NCBI RefSeq assembly: GCF_005696695.1
Contig: NZ_CP040006.1
Span: 630,001 to 662,000 of the forward strand
From: Schaalia odontolytica
GTDB lineage: Bacteria; Actinomycetota; Actinomycetes; Actinomycetales; Actinomycetaceae
Direction: 5' to 3'
DNA: 32,000 nt
The notes below the pieces were generated by a model. That model did no database searches and was not told the DNA's origin. It worked only from the letters and a program-made list of their open reading frames with translations. Shown one piece after another: positions 4,022 to 20,278 of the stretch (its first letter is position 1; every line of letters begins with the position of its first letter). Made by a program: the position numbers and the translations under genes.

Positions 4022-5020
4022 TCAGTCCTGGAGGGTGAGCTCTCCGGCGATGGACAGATCCATCCAGCGCTTGAAGTCCGCGCCGCGCTTGCCCTGCGAG
4101 AGCAGGAAGACAGTCTTAGCGTAGAGGGCCTCGAGCGTCATGTCGTGCGCGCCGATCGCACCCAGTTGCGCGAGGGCGTTGCCGGCCTCGTAGTGGCCGA
4201 GCATGACCTCCGCCTGGTAGCACTGGGAGGCGACGATGATCGGAACCTCGGCCTGCGCGAGCTCGGCCAGGACGTCCACGAGCCCCGGCTCGGAGGCGGG
4301 GATGTTGCCCACGCCGAAGGTGCGCAGGATGAGGGCGTCCGGATGGGGCGTCGTCATGGCGCGCAGTCGCGCGGCGCTCATGCCGGGCACCACGTCGATA
4401 ACGGCTACGTCCTGGCGCGTGTACGGGCTCGGATCCTGCCAGCCGGTGCCCGCGCTCGGGGCGCCGTACCAGCGCCACGGGGCGCCCGTGCGCGCCATGG
4501 GGGACACGGAGGGCGACTCGAAGCCGCGGAACGCCCACGACGAGGTCTTGGTGGCGCGGTTGCCGGCCAGGAGCTTATGCCCGAAGAACAGCATGACGCC
4601 TCGTGCGCGGTGCGAAATCGCGGCGCGCAGCGCGCCCGTGACGTTTGACGACGCATCCGAGCCGACGACGCCGAGCGGGTACTGGGAGCCGGTCAGGACG
4701 ACCGGCTTGCCCATGCTCGCCAGCGAGTACGACAGGGCCGCAGCCGAGTAGGCCATCGTGTCCGTGCCGTGCAGGACCAGGAAGGCGTCCGCCTCGTCGG
4801 CGTGCGCGTTGATGTCGTCGATGATGGCCTGCCAGTCCTCGGGGGTAGCCTCCGAGGAGTCGATGAGCGGGTCCAGCGTCGACATCGTGATGTTCGAGGC
4901 CAGCTCGATGCCCTCCAGCTGGGAGCCGAACCACCCCTGCAGGTCCGCGCCGGGGCGCAGACCCTCGGGGGAGTCGACCATGCCGATGGTGCCACCGGCA
5001 TACGTGACGTGAAGACGCAC
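4022..5020 (-). CDS. ansA: L-asparaginase, cytoplasmic type I
   Basis: 332 aa with a GTG start preceded by AAAGGA. N-terminal catalytic motif VTYAGGTIGM and second motif LVLHGTDTMAYSAAAL. Starts 13 nt downstream of the permease stop, so probably in an operon with it. Confidence 0.9.
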   Translation of the reverse strand: MRLHVTYAGGTIGMVDSPEGLRPGADLQGWFGSQLEGIELASNITMSTLDPLIDSSEATPEDWQAIIDDINAHADEADAFLVLHGTDTMAYSAAALSYSLASMGKPVVLTGSQYPLGVVGSDASSNVTGALRAAISHRARGVMLFFGHKLLAGNRATKTSSWAFRGFESPSVSPMARTGAPWRWYGAPSAGTGWQDPSPYTRQDVAVIDVVPGMSAARLRAMTTPHPDALILRTFGVGNIPASEPGLVDVLAELAQAEVPIIVASQCYQAEVMLGHYEAGNALAQLGAIGAHDMTLEALYAKTVFLLSQGKRGADFKRWMDLSIAGELTLQD

Positions 5021-6732: not shown

Positions 6733-7581
6733 ATGGTGAAGCGAATTGACCCCCACACTCATAGCGCGTATTCAGACGGGACGGATACGCCCGCGCAGCT
6801 CCTGTTTATTGCTGCTCAGGCCGGGCTGGATGCCATCGCGCTGACGGACCATGACACGACGACCGGATGGGACGAGGCCGCGGCCGCCGTTGCGGACACC
6901 GGCGTGAGCCTCATCCGGGGCGCTGAGATGTCGTGCTCGTCCTCGGGGATCACCGTGCACCTCCTGGCCTACCTCTTCGACCCGGCCAGCCCCAGCCTCG
7001 TCGATAATTTCCGACGCACGCGCGAGGACCGCGAGACGCGCGCCGCGCGCATGGTCGAAAACCTGTCGGCCGACTACCCGATTACGTTGGACGACGTGCT
7101 CGCCTTCGCGCCTGAGGGCGGCCCCGTGGGGCGCCCGCACATCGCGGACGCGCTCGTCGCTGCCGGCGCATTCCCCGACCGCAGTGCCGCCTTCGTCAAG
7201 GCCCTGCACCCGTCCGGCCCCTACTACGTGCACCACTGGGCGCCCGACCCGGTCGAGGCCGTGCGATGCGTGCGCGAGGCCGGGGGAGTGCCGGTCCTGG
7301 CCCATCCCCGAGCCCGTAAGCGCCAGCACCTGCTGCCCGAGGCAGTCATCGCCGACATGGCGGCGGCCGGCCTCTTCGGCATCGAGCGCGACCACCGCGA
7401 CCACGCCCCCGAGGACCGCGCCGACGTCGAGCGCATCGCCCGCGAGTTGGGCCTGGCGATGTTCGGCTCCTCCGACTACCACGGGACGGGCAAGCCGAAC
7501 CGTATCGGCGAAAACACGACGGACCCGCAGGTGATCGCCGAGGTCATCGCGCAGGGCGCCATCGAGGTGATCGAGCCGTGA
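6733..7581 (+). CDS. PHP-domain metal-dependent phosphoesterase (TrpH/YciV-like)
   Basis: 282 aa with PHP motifs RIDPHTHSAYSDGT, ALTDHDT and VLAHP. Confidence 0.85.
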   Translation: MVKRIDPHTHSAYSDGTDTPAQLLFIAAQAGLDAIALTDHDTTTGWDEAAAAVADTGVSLIRGAEMSCSSSGITVHLLAYLFDPASPSLVDNFRRTREDRETRAARMVENLSADYPITLDDVLAFAPEGGPVGRPHIADALVAAGAFPDRSAAFVKALHPSGPYYVHHWAPDPVEAVRCVREAGGVPVLAHPRARKRQHLLPEAVIADMAAAGLFGIERDHRDHAPEDRADVERIARELGLAMFGSSDYHGTGKPNRIGENTTDPQVIAEVIAQGAIEVIEP

Positions 7582-8207
7582 GCCTCTTCGACGTCACACT
7601 CTTCGCGACTGCCTTCGCGACGCTGACGGTCATCATGGACCCCATCGGGACCGTGCCCGTCTTCCTGGGCCTCACCGCCCGATACTCCCAGCCCAAGCAG
7701 CGCCGCGCCGCCATCCAGGCCACCTCCGTCTCCTTCGGCGTCATCCTAACCTTCGCGATCCTGGGTGGGCAGATCCTGCGCCTCCTGCATATTTCGATGG
7801 AGGCCCTCCAGCTCTCCGGCGGCGTCCTGCTCTTCCTGGTCGCCATGGAACTCCTCATGGGCACTGATTCGTCCTCTCCTGACACGGGGGACGAGGGCGT
7901 GAACGTCGCGCTCGTCCCGCTGGGGACGCCGCTGCTCGCCGGCCCCGGCTCGATCGTCGCCGTCATGGTGGCCGTCGGACAGGCCGGCACGAACGTGGGG
8001 TCGTGGATCGCTGTCATCGTCGCCGTCGTGCTCGCGCACATCGTGATGTGGCTGACGATGCGCTTCTCACTCATGCTGTCCAGGATGCTCGGCCCCGGCG
8101 GCATCATGCTGCTGACAAAGATCTCCGGCCTGCTGCTGGCGGCCATTGCGACGCAGCTCATCATGGAGGGAATCTTCCAGTTCATTGCGACCGCCAAGCT
8201 CTCCTGA
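7578..8207 (+). CDS. MarC-family (UPF0056) integral membrane protein
   Basis: 209 aa with 6 hydrophobic segments and the N-terminal motif VIMDPIGTVPVFLGL. The GTG start overlaps the PHP gene stop as GTGA (4-nt overlap). Confidence 0.85.
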   Translation: MSLFDVTLFATAFATLTVIMDPIGTVPVFLGLTARYSQPKQRRAAIQATSVSFGVILTFAILGGQILRLLHISMEALQLSGGVLLFLVAMELLMGTDSSSPDTGDEGVNVALVPLGTPLLAGPGSIVAVMVAVGQAGTNVGSWIAVIVAVVLAHIVMWLTMRFSLMLSRMLGPGGIMLLTKISGLLLAAIATQLIMEGIFQFIATAKLS

Positions 8208-16732: not shown

Positions 16733-16864
16733 GCCGGGCTGTTCTGCGAAGCGGAGCTGGCGGTGGCGTGGGTGCGTTTGAACCCTGTTCTTGTCGAGAC
16801 GGATTTGCCCGACGTGGGGCGGTGAGTGGGCTAGGTGTAAAGCTCGCGGCGGTACACTGTGAGC

Positions 16865-17779
16865 ATGGGTAAACGAATTCTTGGGTGGCTGCGGCAAAGG
16901 CGAGTTGCAGTGATGTATGGAGTGTTATGGTGTTTCTCGTTCTTCGTTATCGCAGTGTTTTTTCATAAAACTCTCACTGATATCGCGCATCGTGCTGATG
17001 GGGAGATTGCTGAAGCCTGCGTGGTGATGTATGTGATTTCTGTTGTTCTCAGTGTGGCTTACGTTTTCTTCGGATTGTCGATTCGCCAGGGGAAACGACG
17101 TCTTTGTGTGACTATGCAATTGCTGGCATTTGCCATACTTGTGACAATATTTCGCTCTGTGTTTGATGTGCTTGGTGGTGAGGGGCTTGCGTTTTCCATT
17201 GGAACACCTACTTCTGGAGTAGTATCGGTCTATGAAGTGTTCTTTATGTGGGCGCTTTTTCTTGTGGGGGTAGGAATTCAAATTACTTTGATCTCCAATG
17301 AAGCTCGACGTGCTGAAATGAATATGCTTCATGGTGGAGTTCTTGTTATCGTAGGTATTCTGCTGCCTAAAATGCTCGATTCCTATTCACTGCTTCGTGC
17401 TCACTGCTACGAGGTGCAATGTGGTAATGGTGAGCTCGGTAGTATCGTGCTATTTGAAATGGCTGTCTCCTACGCTGCTGCTCTAGCTGTAATGTTCGTG
17501 TTTGGGATCGTCTCTCCTTCTATTCGTACTTCTATACGCAGAATTACTGGAGAAAATGAATTTGAATGCGTAATGCATTCTGATGATGTTCCACATCATT
17601 GTGATCATCCCGCCGCTTTTTGCGTAGAAAAGGAATCGTTTGACAAGAGTGCATTGGCAGGCTCTTCCACCGGCTTAAGTGGTGTTGCTCTATCCAAGCA
17701 GCTGATGAGTGCTGTTGTTGGTGGTCTCGTCGCCGGCGCGTGTTTCTCGGTTGTGAACCGTCTCTTCAGTCGCCGCTGA
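16865..17779 (+). CDS. Orphan polytopic membrane protein encoded in low-GC DNA (no family recognised)
   Basis: An uninterrupted reading frame of over 900 nt, unlikely by chance in DNA where my 60-nt hand counts gave 50%, 40% and 33% G+C. The neighbouring gene gave 75%. At least 6 hydrophobic segments, a Cys/His-rich tail (HCYEVQCGNGE, FECVMHSDDVPHHCDHPAAFC) and a C-terminal hydrophobic helix. There is no SD sequence. TACACT (16853-16858) lies 6 nt before the ATG at 16865, consistent with a leaderless mRNA. Alternative starts are GTG 16859 and ATG 16910. Confidence 0.6.
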   Translation: MGKRILGWLRQRRVAVMYGVLWCFSFFVIAVFFHKTLTDIAHRADGEIAEACVVMYVISVVLSVAYVFFGLSIRQGKRRLCVTMQLLAFAILVTIFRSVFDVLGGEGLAFSIGTPTSGVVSVYEVFFMWALFLVGVGIQITLISNEARRAEMNMLHGGVLVIVGILLPKMLDSYSLLRAHCYEVQCGNGELGSIVLFEMAVSYAAALAVMFVFGIVSPSIRTSIRRITGENEFECVMHSDDVPHHCDHPAAFCVEKESFDKSALAGSSTGLSGVALSKQLMSAVVGGLVAGACFSVVNRLFSRR

Positions 17780-17832
17780 ACTGCGTTGCCTTGCACTTTG
17801 ACTGGTGAATCGAGGAGTGTTCCCACATTGTG

Positions 17833-18000
17833 GCTTGTTACTAAGTGGTGTTACACCACTTAGCGGGGTATTACACCAGCTCGGAGGTGGTGTAATGCTC
17901 CCTAACTGGTGTAATGCTCCCTAACTGGTGCAGGGCTGTCTGCTGCGGCTCGGTTGGACGCTAGTTGGAGCTACTACGGAGTAGCTCTTACCGCGACGGA
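17833..18000 (+). repeat. Macro-unit A (168 bp)
   Basis: Perfect hairpin CTAAGTGGTG-TTA-CACCACTTAG (17841-17863). Hairpin GGGGTATTACACCAGC / GGTGGTGTAATGCTCC (17865-17901). Perfect 19-bp tandem duplication TGGTGTAATGCTCCCTAAC (17888-17906 and 17907-17925). Closing word TGGTGCAGGGCTG. Tetraloop hairpin at 17967-17988. Confidence 0.8.
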
Positions 18001-18168
18001 GCTTGTTGGACAGTGGCATTGCACTAGTTAGCGCAGCGTTGCACTGGATAGTAGGCAGTGTAATGCCCTCCTATCTAGTGCATTGCTGTCGTATCTAGTG
18101 CAGTGCTGCGCGGCCCGGGCCTGTTAGTTGTTTGCGGAGGACGTTGCGACGTCCGGTTCCATAACGAT
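18001..18168 (+). repeat. Macro-unit B (168 bp)
   Basis: Forward words TTGCACTAG (18019) and TTGCACTGG (18039). Reverse words AGTGTAATGCC (18057), CTAGTGCAT (18075) and CTAGTGCAG (18095). A 20-bp direct repeat TATCTAGTGCAnTGCTG occurs twice. Tetraloop hairpin GGACGT-TGCG-ACGTCC at 18139-18154. Confidence 0.8.
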
Positions 18169-18316
18169 GCTTGTTACCGATGAGGCGGTGCACCCGATCC
18201 GTAGGCATTACACCCCTTCTGATCGGGTGTATCGCGACGGATCGGGTGCAGCGCTGCCTGGCCAGGACCTGTCGTACGCCGGCATGTGCAGTGTCAGCGA
18301 GGATACCCACGTCCAA
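18169..18316 (+). repeat. Macro-unit C (148 bp, one micro-unit shorter than A and B)
   Basis: GCGGTGCACCCGATCC (18185-18200) pairs at 15 of 16 positions with GGATCGGGTGCAGCGC (18239-18254). There is an inner arm pair TACACCC / GGGTGTA. The closing word GGTGCAGCGCTG is shared with A and B. Confidence 0.75.
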
Positions 18317-18430
18317 GCTTGTTACTGATGAGGTGTTGCACCCGATCGGGAAGATTCAACCCGATCAGAAAGGGTTGAACCTTCCCCAACGGGTTGAATG
18401 TTCCCGATCAGGTTGAATCTTGTCGCGCCC
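18317..18430 (+). repeat. Macro-unit D (terminal and more diverged)
   Basis: The first 31 nt are nearly identical to unit C (GCTTGTTACyGATGAGG..TGCACCCGATC). They are followed by ATTCAACCCGATC (18354-18366) and three reverse copies: GGGTTGAAC, CGGGTTGAATG and GATCAGGTTGAAT (18406-18418). Confidence 0.7.
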
Positions 18431-18444
18431 TGAGGTCCCAAACA

Positions 18445-18482
18445 GGGGAGGGGCCCAAGCCTCTCGGCTCGGACCCCTCCTC
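18445..18482 (-). terminator. Terminator of the DEAD-box helicase gene
   Basis: GGGGAGGGGCC (18445-18455) pairs with GGACCCCTCC (18471-18480). On the minus strand the hairpin is followed by TGTTTGGG. It lies 30 nt after the minus-strand stop. Confidence 0.55.
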
Positions 18483-18511: not shown

Positions 18512-20278
18512 TCACTCGCCGCCCTTGCGGCGGCGGATGCGCTTGCGGGCGCGGGGCGCGCCCTCAGGTGCCTCACCCGAACGCTGCGAGTGCTCGCCGC
18601 GGCCACGGCCACGCGTGCCGCGGTCAGAGCGGCCGCCCTTGCCGGCGTTCAGCGTGCGATCGCCGTCTTGGGAGCCTCGACGCGACCCGCGCGAACGCGA
18701 CGCGTCGGAGGAAGCAGCCGAACCACCACGCGACGAACGACCGCGGCCGCCACGCGAGCCACCACGCGAGCCACCGGAACCCGAACGCGAGCCGCCACGG
18801 CCTCGTCCCTCGGAACGGGGAGCGGAGCCGCCCAGGTCCTCGAGGACCTCGGCGTCCAGGCCTGCGCGCGTGCGCTTGGCGCGCGGCAGACGACCGGTCG
18901 TGCCCTCCGGGATATCCAGGTCGGTGAACAGGTGGGGGGAGGTGTGGTAGGTCTCGAGCGGATCCGGCACGCCCAGGCCCAGTGCCTTGGAGATGAGCGA
19001 CCAGCGCGGCGTGTCGTCCCAGTCGACGAAGGTGACGGCCGTGCCCGAGTTGCCCGCGCGGCCCGTGCGGCCGATGCGGTGGATGTAGATCTTCTCGTCT
19101 TCGGGGCACTGGTAGTTGATGACGTGCGTGACGTCGTCGACGTCGATGCCTCGCGCGGCGACGTCGGTGGCGACCAGGACGTCGACCTTGCCGTTACGGA
19201 AGGCACGCAGAGCCTGCTCGCGGGCGCCCTGGCCCAGATCGCCGTGCAGTGAGCCGACCGCGAAGCCGCGGGCGGTCAGGTCCTCGCCCAGGCGGGCGGC
19301 GGTGCGCTTGGTGCGGCAGAAGATGACGGTGCGTCCGCGCCCCTCGGCCTGGAGGATGCGGGAGACGACCTCCACCTTGTTCATGGCGTGAACACGGTAG
19401 ATGACCTGCTTGACCGTGTTGACGGTCTGGTTCTGGTCGTCGGGATCCTGCGCGCGGATGTGGGTCGGCTGGACCATGAAGCGGCGGGCGAGGGCCACGA
19501 CGGGGCCGGGCATGGTCGCGGAGAACAGCATGGTGTGGCGGTTCTCGGGGACACGGCTGAGCAGCGTCTCGACGTCGGGCAGGAAGCCCAGGTCGAGCAT
19601 CTCGTCGGCCTCGTCGAGGACGACGGTCTCCACGCCGGACAGGTGCAGGTGGCCCTTGCGCAGCAGGTCGATGAGGCGGCCGGGCGTGCCCACGACGATG
19701 TCTGCGCCACGCTGGAGGGCCTCGATCTGGGGCTCGAAGGCGACGCCGCCGTAGATTTCGACGATGCGGGTCGACAGGTACTTGGCGGCCTCGCGCAGGT
19801 CCTGGGCGACCTGCTTGGTGAGCTCGCGGGTCGGCAGGATGATGAGCGCCTGCGGCTTGTTCGGGTTGAGGAGGTCCTCGTAGCCCTCTTCGTCGGGCGC
19901 GATGACGTCCTCGAGGACGGGGATGCCGAAGCCGAGGGTCTTGCCGGTGCCGGTCTTGGCCTGGCCGATGATGTCGTGGCGGTCCAGCGCGGGGCCGAGG
20001 GTGAGGGCCTGGATCGGGAAGGGGTGCGTGATGCCCTTGTCTTCGAGGGCGTCGACGATCGGGTCGGTGACGCCGAAGTCCGCGAAAGACTTCTTGTCGA
20101 GGTCCTCGCCCTTGCCGGTGATGTCCGGGGTGGCATCTTCGACCTCGGGGGCTGCGGGCTTGATGTTGCCGAGGCGGACGACGCCTGCGGAGTATTCGAC
20201 GGACGAGGCCGGGGTGGCCTTCTCGGTGGCGTCAACGTCGGTGGTGGGCACAGTTGCCTCAGTGCTCGTGTTGGTCAC
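18512..20278 (-). CDS. rhlE: DEAD-box ATP-dependent RNA helicase with an Arg/Gly/Ser-rich C-terminal tail
   Basis: 588 aa with a GTG start. Q motif ..HPFPIQ, motif I AKTGTGKT, Ia PTRELT, II VLDEADEM, III SAT, VI HRIGRTGRAG. The tail reads RGRGGSRSGSGGSRGGSRGGRGRSSRGG. The symbol is assigned by analogy to mycobacterial Rv3211. Confidence 0.92.
   Translation of the reverse strand: MTNTSTEATVPTTDVDATEKATPASSVEYSAGVVRLGNIKPAAPEVEDATPDITGKGEDLDKKSFADFGVTDPIVDALEDKGITHPFPIQALTLGPALDRHDIIGQAKTGTGKTLGFGIPVLEDVIAPDEEGYEDLLNPNKPQALIILPTRELTKQVAQDLREAAKYLSTRIVEIYGGVAFEPQIEALQRGADIVVGTPGRLIDLLRKGHLHLSGVETVVLDEADEMLDLGFLPDVETLLSRVPENRHTMLFSATMPGPVVALARRFMVQPTHIRAQDPDDQNQTVNTVKQVIYRVHAMNKVEVVSRILQAEGRGRTVIFCRTKRTAARLGEDLTARGFAVGSLHGDLGQGAREQALRAFRNGKVDVLVATDVAARGIDVDDVTHVINYQCPEDEKIYIHRIGRTGRAGNSGTAVTFVDWDDTPRWSLISKALGLGVPDPLETYHTSPHLFTDLDIPEGTTGRLPRAKRTRAGLDAEVLEDLGGSAPRSEGRGRGGSRSGSGGSRGGSRGGRGRSSRGGSAASSDASRSRGSRRGSQDGDRTLNAGKGGRSDRGTRGRGRGEHSQRSGEAPEGAPRARKRIRRRKGGE

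Follow-up and report, generated by a model that had tools for sequence, protein, structure and literature searches.

A mosaic array of hairpin-forming repeats between two convergent genes of Schaalia odontolytica and its likely place in a lineage-specific intergenic repeat family

The repeat array and its architecture

The gap between two convergent genes on the chromosome of Schaalia odontolytica (NCBI RefSeq assembly GCF_005696695.1, contig NZ_CP040006.1, positions 630,001 to 662,000 of the forward strand; this stretch of 32,000 nucleotides is called the window below and all coordinates refer to it) is filled by a nested array of repeats. The upstream neighbour is a low-GC open reading frame (ORF), here ORF X (16859-17779, + strand), whose translation gives the picture of a membrane protein, and the other neighbour is a DEAD-box RNA helicase gene (18512-20278, - strand; Pfam DEAD 2.9e-46, Helicase_C 3.9e-33), so that 732 bp lie between the two stop codons at 17779 and 18512. 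A preliminary description, made from the letters alone, had read this gap as four macro-units composed of short micro-repeats and as an element of no described class. We found that all the macro-units take the form of long imperfect hairpins and that copies of the units are dispersed over the chromosomes of related strains, and we consider it likely that the array is one cluster of a lineage-specific, interspersed, mosaic, hairpin-forming family of intergenic repeats in the group formed by Schaalia odontolytica, Pauljensenia and oral 'Actinomyces sp.' The genes of the window are ordinary chromosomal ones, with no integrase, transposase or cas gene among them.

The four macro-units, called A to D, are where they had been placed: each starts with GCTTGT(T) on the + strand, at 17833, 18001, 18169 and 18317, with spacings of 168, 168 and 148 bp. 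Pairwise global alignment against shuffled controls confirmed their similarity for A-B (70% identity, z = 15), B-C (73%, z = 12.6), C-D (69%, z = 13.6) and A-D (65%, z = 12.1); the pair A-C is weaker (61%, z = 4.3) and the pair B-D does not rise above the shuffles (61%, z = 1.1). The top lags of ungapped self-matches within 17783-18430 are 148, 168, 318, 20 and 19. Tandem Repeats Finder reported the micro level only, with a period of 19 at 17888-17930 and 18372-18421, because the macro-units are too diverged for it. The core word TTRCAC/GTGYAA is concentrated in the array as described, 10 of its 17 matches in the window falling within about 550 bp (17791-18341), so placed that in every unit the left side has the forward copies and the right side the reverse ones; the word is common to types A-C and absent from type D and from a further type, GGATAGG, presented below.

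All four units follow the same order, namely the leader GCTTGTT, 6-14 nt, a hairpin, a terminal word and a spacer of about 60 nt. The micro-repeats measure 19-20 nt, two forward and two or three reverse copies per unit, and differ from one unit to the next (TTACACCA in A, TTGCACTAG in B, GTGCACCCGATC in C and TTCAACCCGATC in D) while the layout stays the same. The word GTGCAGnGCTG, thought to end the macro-units A, B and C, is indeed present in all three, with the variants GTGCAGGGCTG at 17926, GTGCAGTGCTG at 18098 and GTGCAGCGCTG at 18246, but its place is at the close of the hairpin, with about 60 nt still to come before the next unit starts, and it is not the end of the macro-unit.

All parts of the array are given on the + strand. 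It begins with a degenerate partial unit, 'pre' (17783-17832), which consists of TTGCAC...CTGGTGAAT and a spacer-like tail running into unit A; it had been noticed directly after the ORF X stop, and it is conserved there in relatives. Macro-unit A (17833-18000) comprises the leader (17833-17839), forward micro-repeats at about 17847-17886 with the core TTACACC, reverse micro-repeats at 17888-17906 and 17907-17925, the terminal word GTGCAGGGCTG (17926-17936) and the spacer (17937-18000). Macro-unit B (18001-18168) has its leader at 18001-18007, forward micro-repeats at 18016-18051 with the core TTGCACT, reverse ones at 18057-18096, the terminal word GTGCAGTGCTG at 18098-18108 and the spacer at 18109-18168. 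Macro-unit C (18169-18316), with the leader at 18169-18175, carries forward micro-repeats at 18185-18224 (GTGCACCCGATC, then TTACACCCC), reverse ones at 18221-18254, the terminal word GTGCAGCGCTG at 18246-18256 and the spacer at 18257-18316; as had been stated, it is shorter by one micro-unit, having one reverse micro-repeat fewer than A and B. Macro-unit D (18317-18430), the last unit before the helicase terminator, has its leader at 18317-18323, forward micro-repeats at 18332-18371 (TTGCACCCGATC, then TTCAACCCGATC) and reverse ones at 18372-18421 (GGGTTGAA, period 19).

The array is non-coding, as had been supposed: the spacings of 148-168 bp hold no conserved ORF. The statement that every reading frame is broken by stops is right insofar as no frame is open throughout the array, but ORFs of 66-81 amino acids exist inside it. 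It is not a simple satellite, and it does not resemble clustered regularly interspaced short palindromic repeats (CRISPR) either, since the micro-repeats abut and occur in both orientations and the macro-units are just 61-73% alike; no cas domains were found in the window. Both of these earlier judgements therefore stand.

Hairpin structure of the units

What the preliminary description had overlooked is the fold of the macro-units: all of them form long imperfect hairpins, whose arms of 31-40 nt are 74-82% complementary. In A to D the left arm is made of two forward micro-repeats and the right arm of two or three reverse ones. Folded as RNA, the units reach minimum free energies of -50 to -63 kcal/mol on the + strand (z = -5.0 to -6.4), with similar z values on the - strand: hairpin A (17847-17918) has -53.2 kcal/mol and z = -5.0, hairpin B (18013-18109), with 40-nt arms that are 78% complementary, -63.2 kcal/mol and z = -6.4, hairpin C (18183-18259) -51.6 kcal/mol and z = -6.2, and hairpin D, with 34-nt arms that are 82% complementary, -50 kcal/mol and z = -5.7. 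Raw minimum free energies in sliding windows are non-discriminating in DNA of 65-70% GC, and inverted-repeat finding and BLAST with the four units were used instead; by inverted-repeat finding, the whole window contains no other long hairpins.

Across the family the + strand folded better in 96 of 111 units. When the arms were aligned with a scoring that treats G:T and A:C mismatches alike, the former prevailed strongly over the latter in type A (300:55) and in type B (173:55), and the pairing of type A arms amounts to 96.8%. The GC skew showed no consistent sign with respect to the orientation of the units. The window gave no match at the gathering thresholds of Rfam 15, and at E up to 10 the region gave just chance-level matches to microRNA hairpins; a scan and inspection by eye found no promoter-like site in the array or its leader.

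The locus in related genomes

The same locus was compared in relatives, represented by stretches from genome assemblies and metagenome contigs that carry L numbers. Their gene order is glycogen phosphorylase, GntR, an ABC ATPase, a 270-aa protein, an AlbA_2-domain protein, sometimes a 363-aa protein, ORF X, the array and the helicase. The array is present in all relatives at the locus and its content varies: A-B-C-D in the window and in L001, A-D-C-C in L004, C-D in L007, and in L010 A-C, a malic-enzyme gene and then C-C. In most related arrays the terminal unit is D. Between the window and L001, identity of the hairpin cores is 96% for A, 93% for B, 87.5% for C and 95% for D, to be compared with 57-78% for the spacers and 89-93% for the third codon positions of four flanking genes. 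Among 97 distinct A copies from all contexts, mean column identity is 93%. The cores are thus either selected or homogenised by conversion among copies, and the spacers drift fast.

ORF X had been taken for an 'island' ORF. It is a real gene, for which 179 homologues with identities of 30-100% were found, and it occupies the same chromosomal position in most related genomes, and is therefore not a strain-specific island. Its GC content is 0.48-0.54, and its protein identity is 35-84% where the flanking proteins are at 97-99%; it is a hypervariable gene at a conserved position and stands outside the repeat family. Its sequence looks like that of a membrane protein. Neither ORF X nor any of its 179 homologues contains a Pfam domain, and PADLOC gave no match to it. 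In L025, L033 and L040 ORF X is absent, and the array follows directly after the AlbA_2 gene. The 363-aa gene (L010, 4869-5960), which precedes ORF X in many relatives, is not in the window; together the two look like a polymorphic membrane-protein locus. Among the neighbours, PADLOC returned generic P-loop matches for the ABC ATPase and one weak match for the 363-aa protein, and a link of these genes with a defence system was rejected.

The malic-enzyme gene (7680-9329 in L010, also present in L014-L017, L023, L028, L040 and L041) lies between two blocks of repeat units and is absent from the window. It brings its own upstream region and a terminator hairpin, and complete units bound its gain or loss on both sides. 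That it might be a cassette inserted into a unit was considered and rejected, since the seemingly truncated unit upstream ends in its own GTGCAGCG and complete units stand 3' of the gene. In L036 an insertion sequence (IS; about 1-1250), the only one seen, lies directly beside a B unit and cuts the A-B spacer in one assembly; the visible part comprises the last portion of the transposase ORF and a short non-coding tail, and inspection showed no ends shared with the B unit. L037 (an uncultured Xylanimonas metagenome-assembled genome, MAG) and L040 (Sanguibacter keddieii 250_SKED) carry the Schaalia-type locus with 97-99% protein identity to the helicase and other genes of the window, and L036 (Xylanimonas cellulosilytica 352_XCEL) has B and C units at 98-99% nucleotide identity; the organism names of these three records are probably wrong.

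Two features on the helicase side do not belong to the array. A GC-rich hairpin 3' of the helicase stop (18447-18480, - strand), conserved in L001, L004, L007 and L010, is outside the repeat family and is probably the helicase's own terminator; a simple terminator scan left it unscored because its T-run is short. In the 3' part of the helicase gene, a 12-nt tandem repeat (CGAGCCACCACG, 4.8 copies, 18719-18775) corresponds to the repetitive arginine/glycine-rich C-terminal tail of the protein.

Dispersal of the units to other chromosomal contexts

Two words from the hairpins were used to look for copies elsewhere. The exact 23-nt word at the top of hairpin C (18207-18229), scanned against one genome per species, matched 24 stretches, all from assemblies of Schaalia odontolytica, Pauljensenia or oral 'Actinomyces sp.'; two of these records stand under other genus names, yet carry this locus at 97-99% protein identity. 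Fifteen of the 24 stretches include the genes of this locus and nine have no syntenic marker. At least seven of these nine lie at other loci, and L036 and L039 are short edges of this one. The other sites of unit C are found 3' of cysS (L018, L020, L035), near a thiamine pyrophosphate (TPP) riboswitch (L026) and in a gap between subtilase and P-type ATPase genes (L022); in one MAG unit C is present on both a 787-kb and a 728-kb contig. In L026 the riboswitch (1913-2020, - strand, 60.4 bits) is about 470 bp from a C-A repeat pair, and the repeats there lie in a non-coding region of about 1.9 kb 5' of the riboswitch-controlled operon, which is not a convergent gap. That the second type of locus might be a ribosomal RNA (rRNA) operon leader had also been considered and was rejected: no rRNA was found, L026 has the TPP riboswitch and the locus lies 3' of cysS.

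The exact 25-nt word of hairpin A, scanned against metagenome contigs, matched at least 120 stretches; among the matches listed, 63 are at this locus and 57 lack its marker genes. A few of the 57 (L139, L140) are edges of this locus with an ORF X too divergent to match, and among the matches listed the marker-less stretches make up about eight further clusters of context. Single long contigs carry two or three separate unit A sites, and some of the other loci have arrays with three to five units, for example A-B-D-A (L112) and D-A-B-D (L091). The contexts are formed by housekeeping genes, mostly in convergent pairs: an ABC ATPase with RNase H, diacylglycerol kinase with prephenate dehydratase, an unknown gene with nicotinate phosphoribosyltransferase, and an aminopeptidase C-terminal domain protein with a CAP-domain protein.

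Altogether, the family occurs at this locus and in at least nine other chromosomal contexts, and among the matches listed in the exact-word scans types A and C came only from the group of Schaalia, Pauljensenia and oral Actinomyces. We are therefore dealing with a dispersed, lineage-specific repeat family, and the proposal of a locus-specific element, to which its own authors had opposed just such dispersed copies, falls. No genes of mobile elements lie near the other copies. A recombinase, be it an integrase, a Y1 transposase or any other, was found neither in the window nor beside about ten other contexts, and no gene for a transposase associated with repetitive extragenic palindromes (RAYT) adjoins the other copies or occurs in the window. 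The repeat units had no match among viral contigs, phage genomes or plasmids, and a phage, plasmid or viral origin was rejected for that reason.

Mosaic structure and change of the arrays

Adjacent units are co-oriented in 251 of 253 pairs, arrays contain one to six units, and more than 40 array compositions were counted. The spacers form about 13 clusters and are combined with different hairpin types; a single cluster is found in the junctions A-B, C-A, C-B and D-A. Inspection of the relatives' sequences put the module junctions at GCTTGTT and GTGCAGCGC. For A units in 12 contexts, similarity starts about 25 nt before the leader, where there is a weak CCGCA motif, and ends right after the terminal word unless another module adjoins. 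The general module thus described has a short single-stranded leader (G/A)CTTGTT with the weak CCGCA 6-8 nt upstream, a compound hairpin with two forward micro-repeats of 19-20 nt in its left arm, and the closing word GTGCAGnGC.

The right arm contains from two to twelve reverse micro-repeats across the family, with two to four at this locus and 11.7 in L035. In the latter stretch a C-type unit 3' of cysS (4121-4342) has its 19-nt reverse micro-repeat in 11.7 copies (87% matches), and its forward copies are still two. One clean pair for the presence and absence of a unit is given by L112 and L149, in which the extra A unit is flanked by a duplicate, about 55 nt long, of sequence from the adjacent D unit; no short target-site duplication is seen in this single case, and the duplicated flank suggests unequal recombination rather than cut-and-paste insertion.

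The layout is kept by at least four sequence types (A-D), and by an apparent fifth, with different micro-repeats. This last one, called GGATAGG, adjoins A units at other loci (L055, 5195-5290; L134, about 7565-7680, - strand) and is judged by eye. Its micro-repeats, about 19-20 nt long, number two or three in forward and three in reverse orientation, and their core, GGATAGGT/ACCTATCC, is unrelated to those of the other types. A different repeat of about 110 bp, with terminal inverted words TCGCACGTAATT ... AATTACGTGCGA and an inner palindrome around GGAATTGCAACG, also adjoins hairpin units; it forms a tandem pair in L134 (about 7320-7215 and 7085-6975, - strand) and is present in L019, L020, L026 and L035. 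It looks like a separate family akin to miniature inverted-repeat transposable elements (MITEs).

Interpretation and alternative explanations

Taken as a mosaic family of intergenic repeats, which we hold to be the likely explanation, the array would consist of hairpin modules and spacer modules that meet, variously combined, at the two conserved words. From the relatives' sequences, arrays may grow, shrink and be reshuffled by unequal recombination or template switching at these words, and the number of micro-repeats would change by slippage of the 19-nt repeats. The repeats would build up in places where they cause no damage, chiefly the gaps of convergent genes, which are free of promoters; there they are probably transcribed as 3' untranslated sequence and form stem-loops. 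By analogy with repetitive extragenic palindromic (REP) and BOX elements, such stem-loops might hinder read-through or the progress of 3' exonucleases.

Several observations weigh against parts of this picture. The copy number per genome appears low in comparison with classical REP or BOX families, and the conservation of the cores could be due to gene conversion instead of selection. The action of the units at the RNA level is a prediction made by analogy; shuffled sequences of the + strand likewise fold better, so that the advantage of this strand is largely an effect of base composition, and the asymmetry of wobble mismatches is absent from types C (119:119) and D (24:37). In 97 type A copies, among which there is too little variation, no covariation was seen beyond that of shuffles. 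Finally, the repeats are not needed as terminators, since several neighbouring genes already end in a terminator hairpin of their own ahead of them.

The family could also owe its features to an enzyme. If the units were sites of a single-strand-specific recombinase or transposase (either an HUH/Y1 enzyme, as for the hairpins formed by REP doublets, called REPINs, and for the ends of IS200/IS605 elements, or an integron-like system), the folded hairpin shape would be recognised and the adjoining single-stranded GCTTGTT or GTGCAGCGC would be cut. Such a mechanism would account for the uniform orientation of the units, for junctions that lie at the two words and for the appearance of units at new loci. 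The conservation of a layout whose sequence diverges between types fits such a reader of shape, and so do the leader placed 6-14 nt 5' of the hairpin foot with a conserved word at the 3' foot, the 251 co-oriented pairs among 253, junctions exactly at two words that are short for RecA-type recombination, the malic-enzyme gene bracketed by units in some strains, and paralogous copies that are 93% alike across loci. We nevertheless judge this explanation unlikely, given that neither the window nor about ten other contexts has a recombinase, that the 55-nt duplicate of L112 versus L149, with no short target duplication, has the look of unequal recombination, that the integron core GTTRRRY fits unit B only and on the wrong side of the hairpin, and that the complete units on both sides of the malic gene leave no insertion within a unit. 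A broader version, in which the hairpin layout, GCTTGTT and GTGCAGCGC would serve a recombinase that shuffles modules and moves the malic-enzyme gene, ORF X and the 363-aa gene into and out of hot spots of the chromosome, seems to us quite improbable.

The stable hairpins invite a second explanation, that the units are structured RNAs, independent or acting in cis on their neighbours, for example in 3' untranslated control of the ORF X or helicase mRNA. Many mismatches of types A and B are compatible with G:U pairs on the + strand only, the array is co-directional with ORF X and, where present, with the malic-enzyme gene, and the cores are conserved relative to the spacers. Yet types C and D have no strand asymmetry, the same units stand beside unrelated genes at many loci, the array persists without ORF X, strains differ freely in how many units they have and in what order, and no promoter-like site, Rfam match or type A covariation was found, all of which makes us give this proposal little credence. 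A still different proposal starts from the regular period of 19-20 bp, about two helical turns, and the two orientations of the micro-repeats, which could make them iteron-like duplex-DNA sites for a nucleoid, partition or regulatory protein. The TTRCAC/GTGYAA core shared by types A-C would suit such a protein, as would the first type A micro-repeat, a perfect 11/11 palindrome (CTAAGTGGTGT/ACACCACTTAG) that is nearly invariant in 97 copies, and a small GntR-type regulator and a protein with an AlbA_2 DNA-binding domain are encoded nearby. The core is, however, missing from type D and from the GGATAGG type, and no single protein could read all the types; units are also found where those regulator genes are not, and the expansion of reverse copies from two to about twelve, unmatched by forward ones, resembles slippage rather than a tuned binding array. 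We regard this proposal as very improbable.

Comparison with known repeat families

Bacterial interspersed mosaic elements (BIMEs), which are built from REP sequences in enterobacteria, offer a close likeness: they too are dispersed between genes, often at 3' ends or in convergent gaps, form hairpins, and combine palindromic units with spacer motifs of several kinds into mosaics whose composition varies between strains. The roles proposed for BIME and REP sequences are protection of mRNA 3' ends and termination. A REP unit consists of one palindrome, about 35 nt long, that carries a conserved 5' tetranucleotide; within a BIME such units alternate in orientation, and their copies number in the hundreds. 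The units described here are different in being compound hairpins of 70-100 nt, made of 19-20-nt micro-repeats with a 7-nt leader, co-oriented in 251 of 253 pairs and apparently of low copy number. They share with REP, BIME and REPIN sequences the hallmark of dispersed intergenic copies in one lineage, with at least nine contexts besides this locus. REPINs, which RAYT transposases mobilise, are also hairpins of inverted copies of a short repeat with a conserved adjoining short word and similar dispersed copies, but they pair one repeat with one, whereas two micro-repeats are paired here with two to twelve, and there is no GTAG-type word.

The BOX elements of Streptococcus pneumoniae (boxA-boxB(n)-boxC) are likewise modular, intergenic, non-coding stem-loops with an internal sub-repeat of variable copy number and no known transposase. 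A comparable behaviour is seen in the reverse micro-repeats, present in 2-11.7 copies within a dispersed stem-loop element, and this is a resemblance, not membership: the sub-repeat has 45 nt in BOX and 19-20 nt here, the phylum is another and no sequence relation is claimed. Moreover, both arms here are made of micro-repeats, several types share one layout, and the arrays are co-oriented and have spacers. The Neisseria intergenic mosaic elements (NIMEs) combine 20-nt dRS3 repeats and variable segments of 50-150 nt into strain-variable intergenic mosaics at hot spots of gene gain and loss, and ORF X, the 363-aa gene and the malic-enzyme gene come and go around the array in a similar way. The dRS3 units flank variable segments, however, and are not the arms of one long hairpin. 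They are a known target of a recombinase-driven prophage, and no such prophage or recombinase link was seen for the Schaalia units.

Integron attC sites, including clusters of attC sites lacking integrase (CALINs), resemble the array in being co-oriented imperfect hairpins of conserved shape and divergent sequence, and in some relatives one gene, that of the malic enzyme, is bracketed by the units. The cores RYYYAAC/GTTRRRY are not found by inspection, apart from the leader of unit B, GTTGGAC, which fits and lies 5' of the hairpin, and the 3' foot here is GTGCAGnGCTG. The units are 148-168 bp apart with no ORFs between them and no integrase in 32 kb, and they are scattered between housekeeping genes and do not form one platform. 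As for MITEs, the hairpin arms are inverted repeats, but the leader and the terminal word, placed beyond the arms or at their feet, are not inverted copies of each other; the short target duplication that is the hallmark of MITEs is missing in the one case available (L112 versus L149). Near-identical direct repeats with unique spacers and cas genes, which define CRISPR, are not what the array contains.

We found no description of these repeats in the literature. The earlier view of an undescribed class can be kept in the sense that the family is perhaps not yet described, but its kind, that of mosaic intergenic hairpin repeats, is known. The family is not a member of the BIMEs, BOX elements or NIMEs; it behaves like them and is not a new class of element.

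Significance

The array opens no long-standing question. If the units were after all the sites of a recombinase, they would represent an integron- or REPIN-like system in the Actinomycetaceae, and we know of no report of integrons from this phylum. That several unrelated micro-repeats have taken the same form, a hairpin of two forward and several reverse copies, could point to an enzyme that reads structure or to a general route by which hairpins originate. Schaalia odontolytica and its relatives are a common group of oral commensals, which includes the host of Saccharibacteria epibionts, and mosaic intergenic repeats matter for the assembly and annotation of their genomes. The more than 40 array compositions have a bearing on strain typing, and the repeats mark variable regions of the chromosome, as at the locus studied here, where ORF X, the 363-aa gene and the malic-enzyme gene are gained and lost beside the array.

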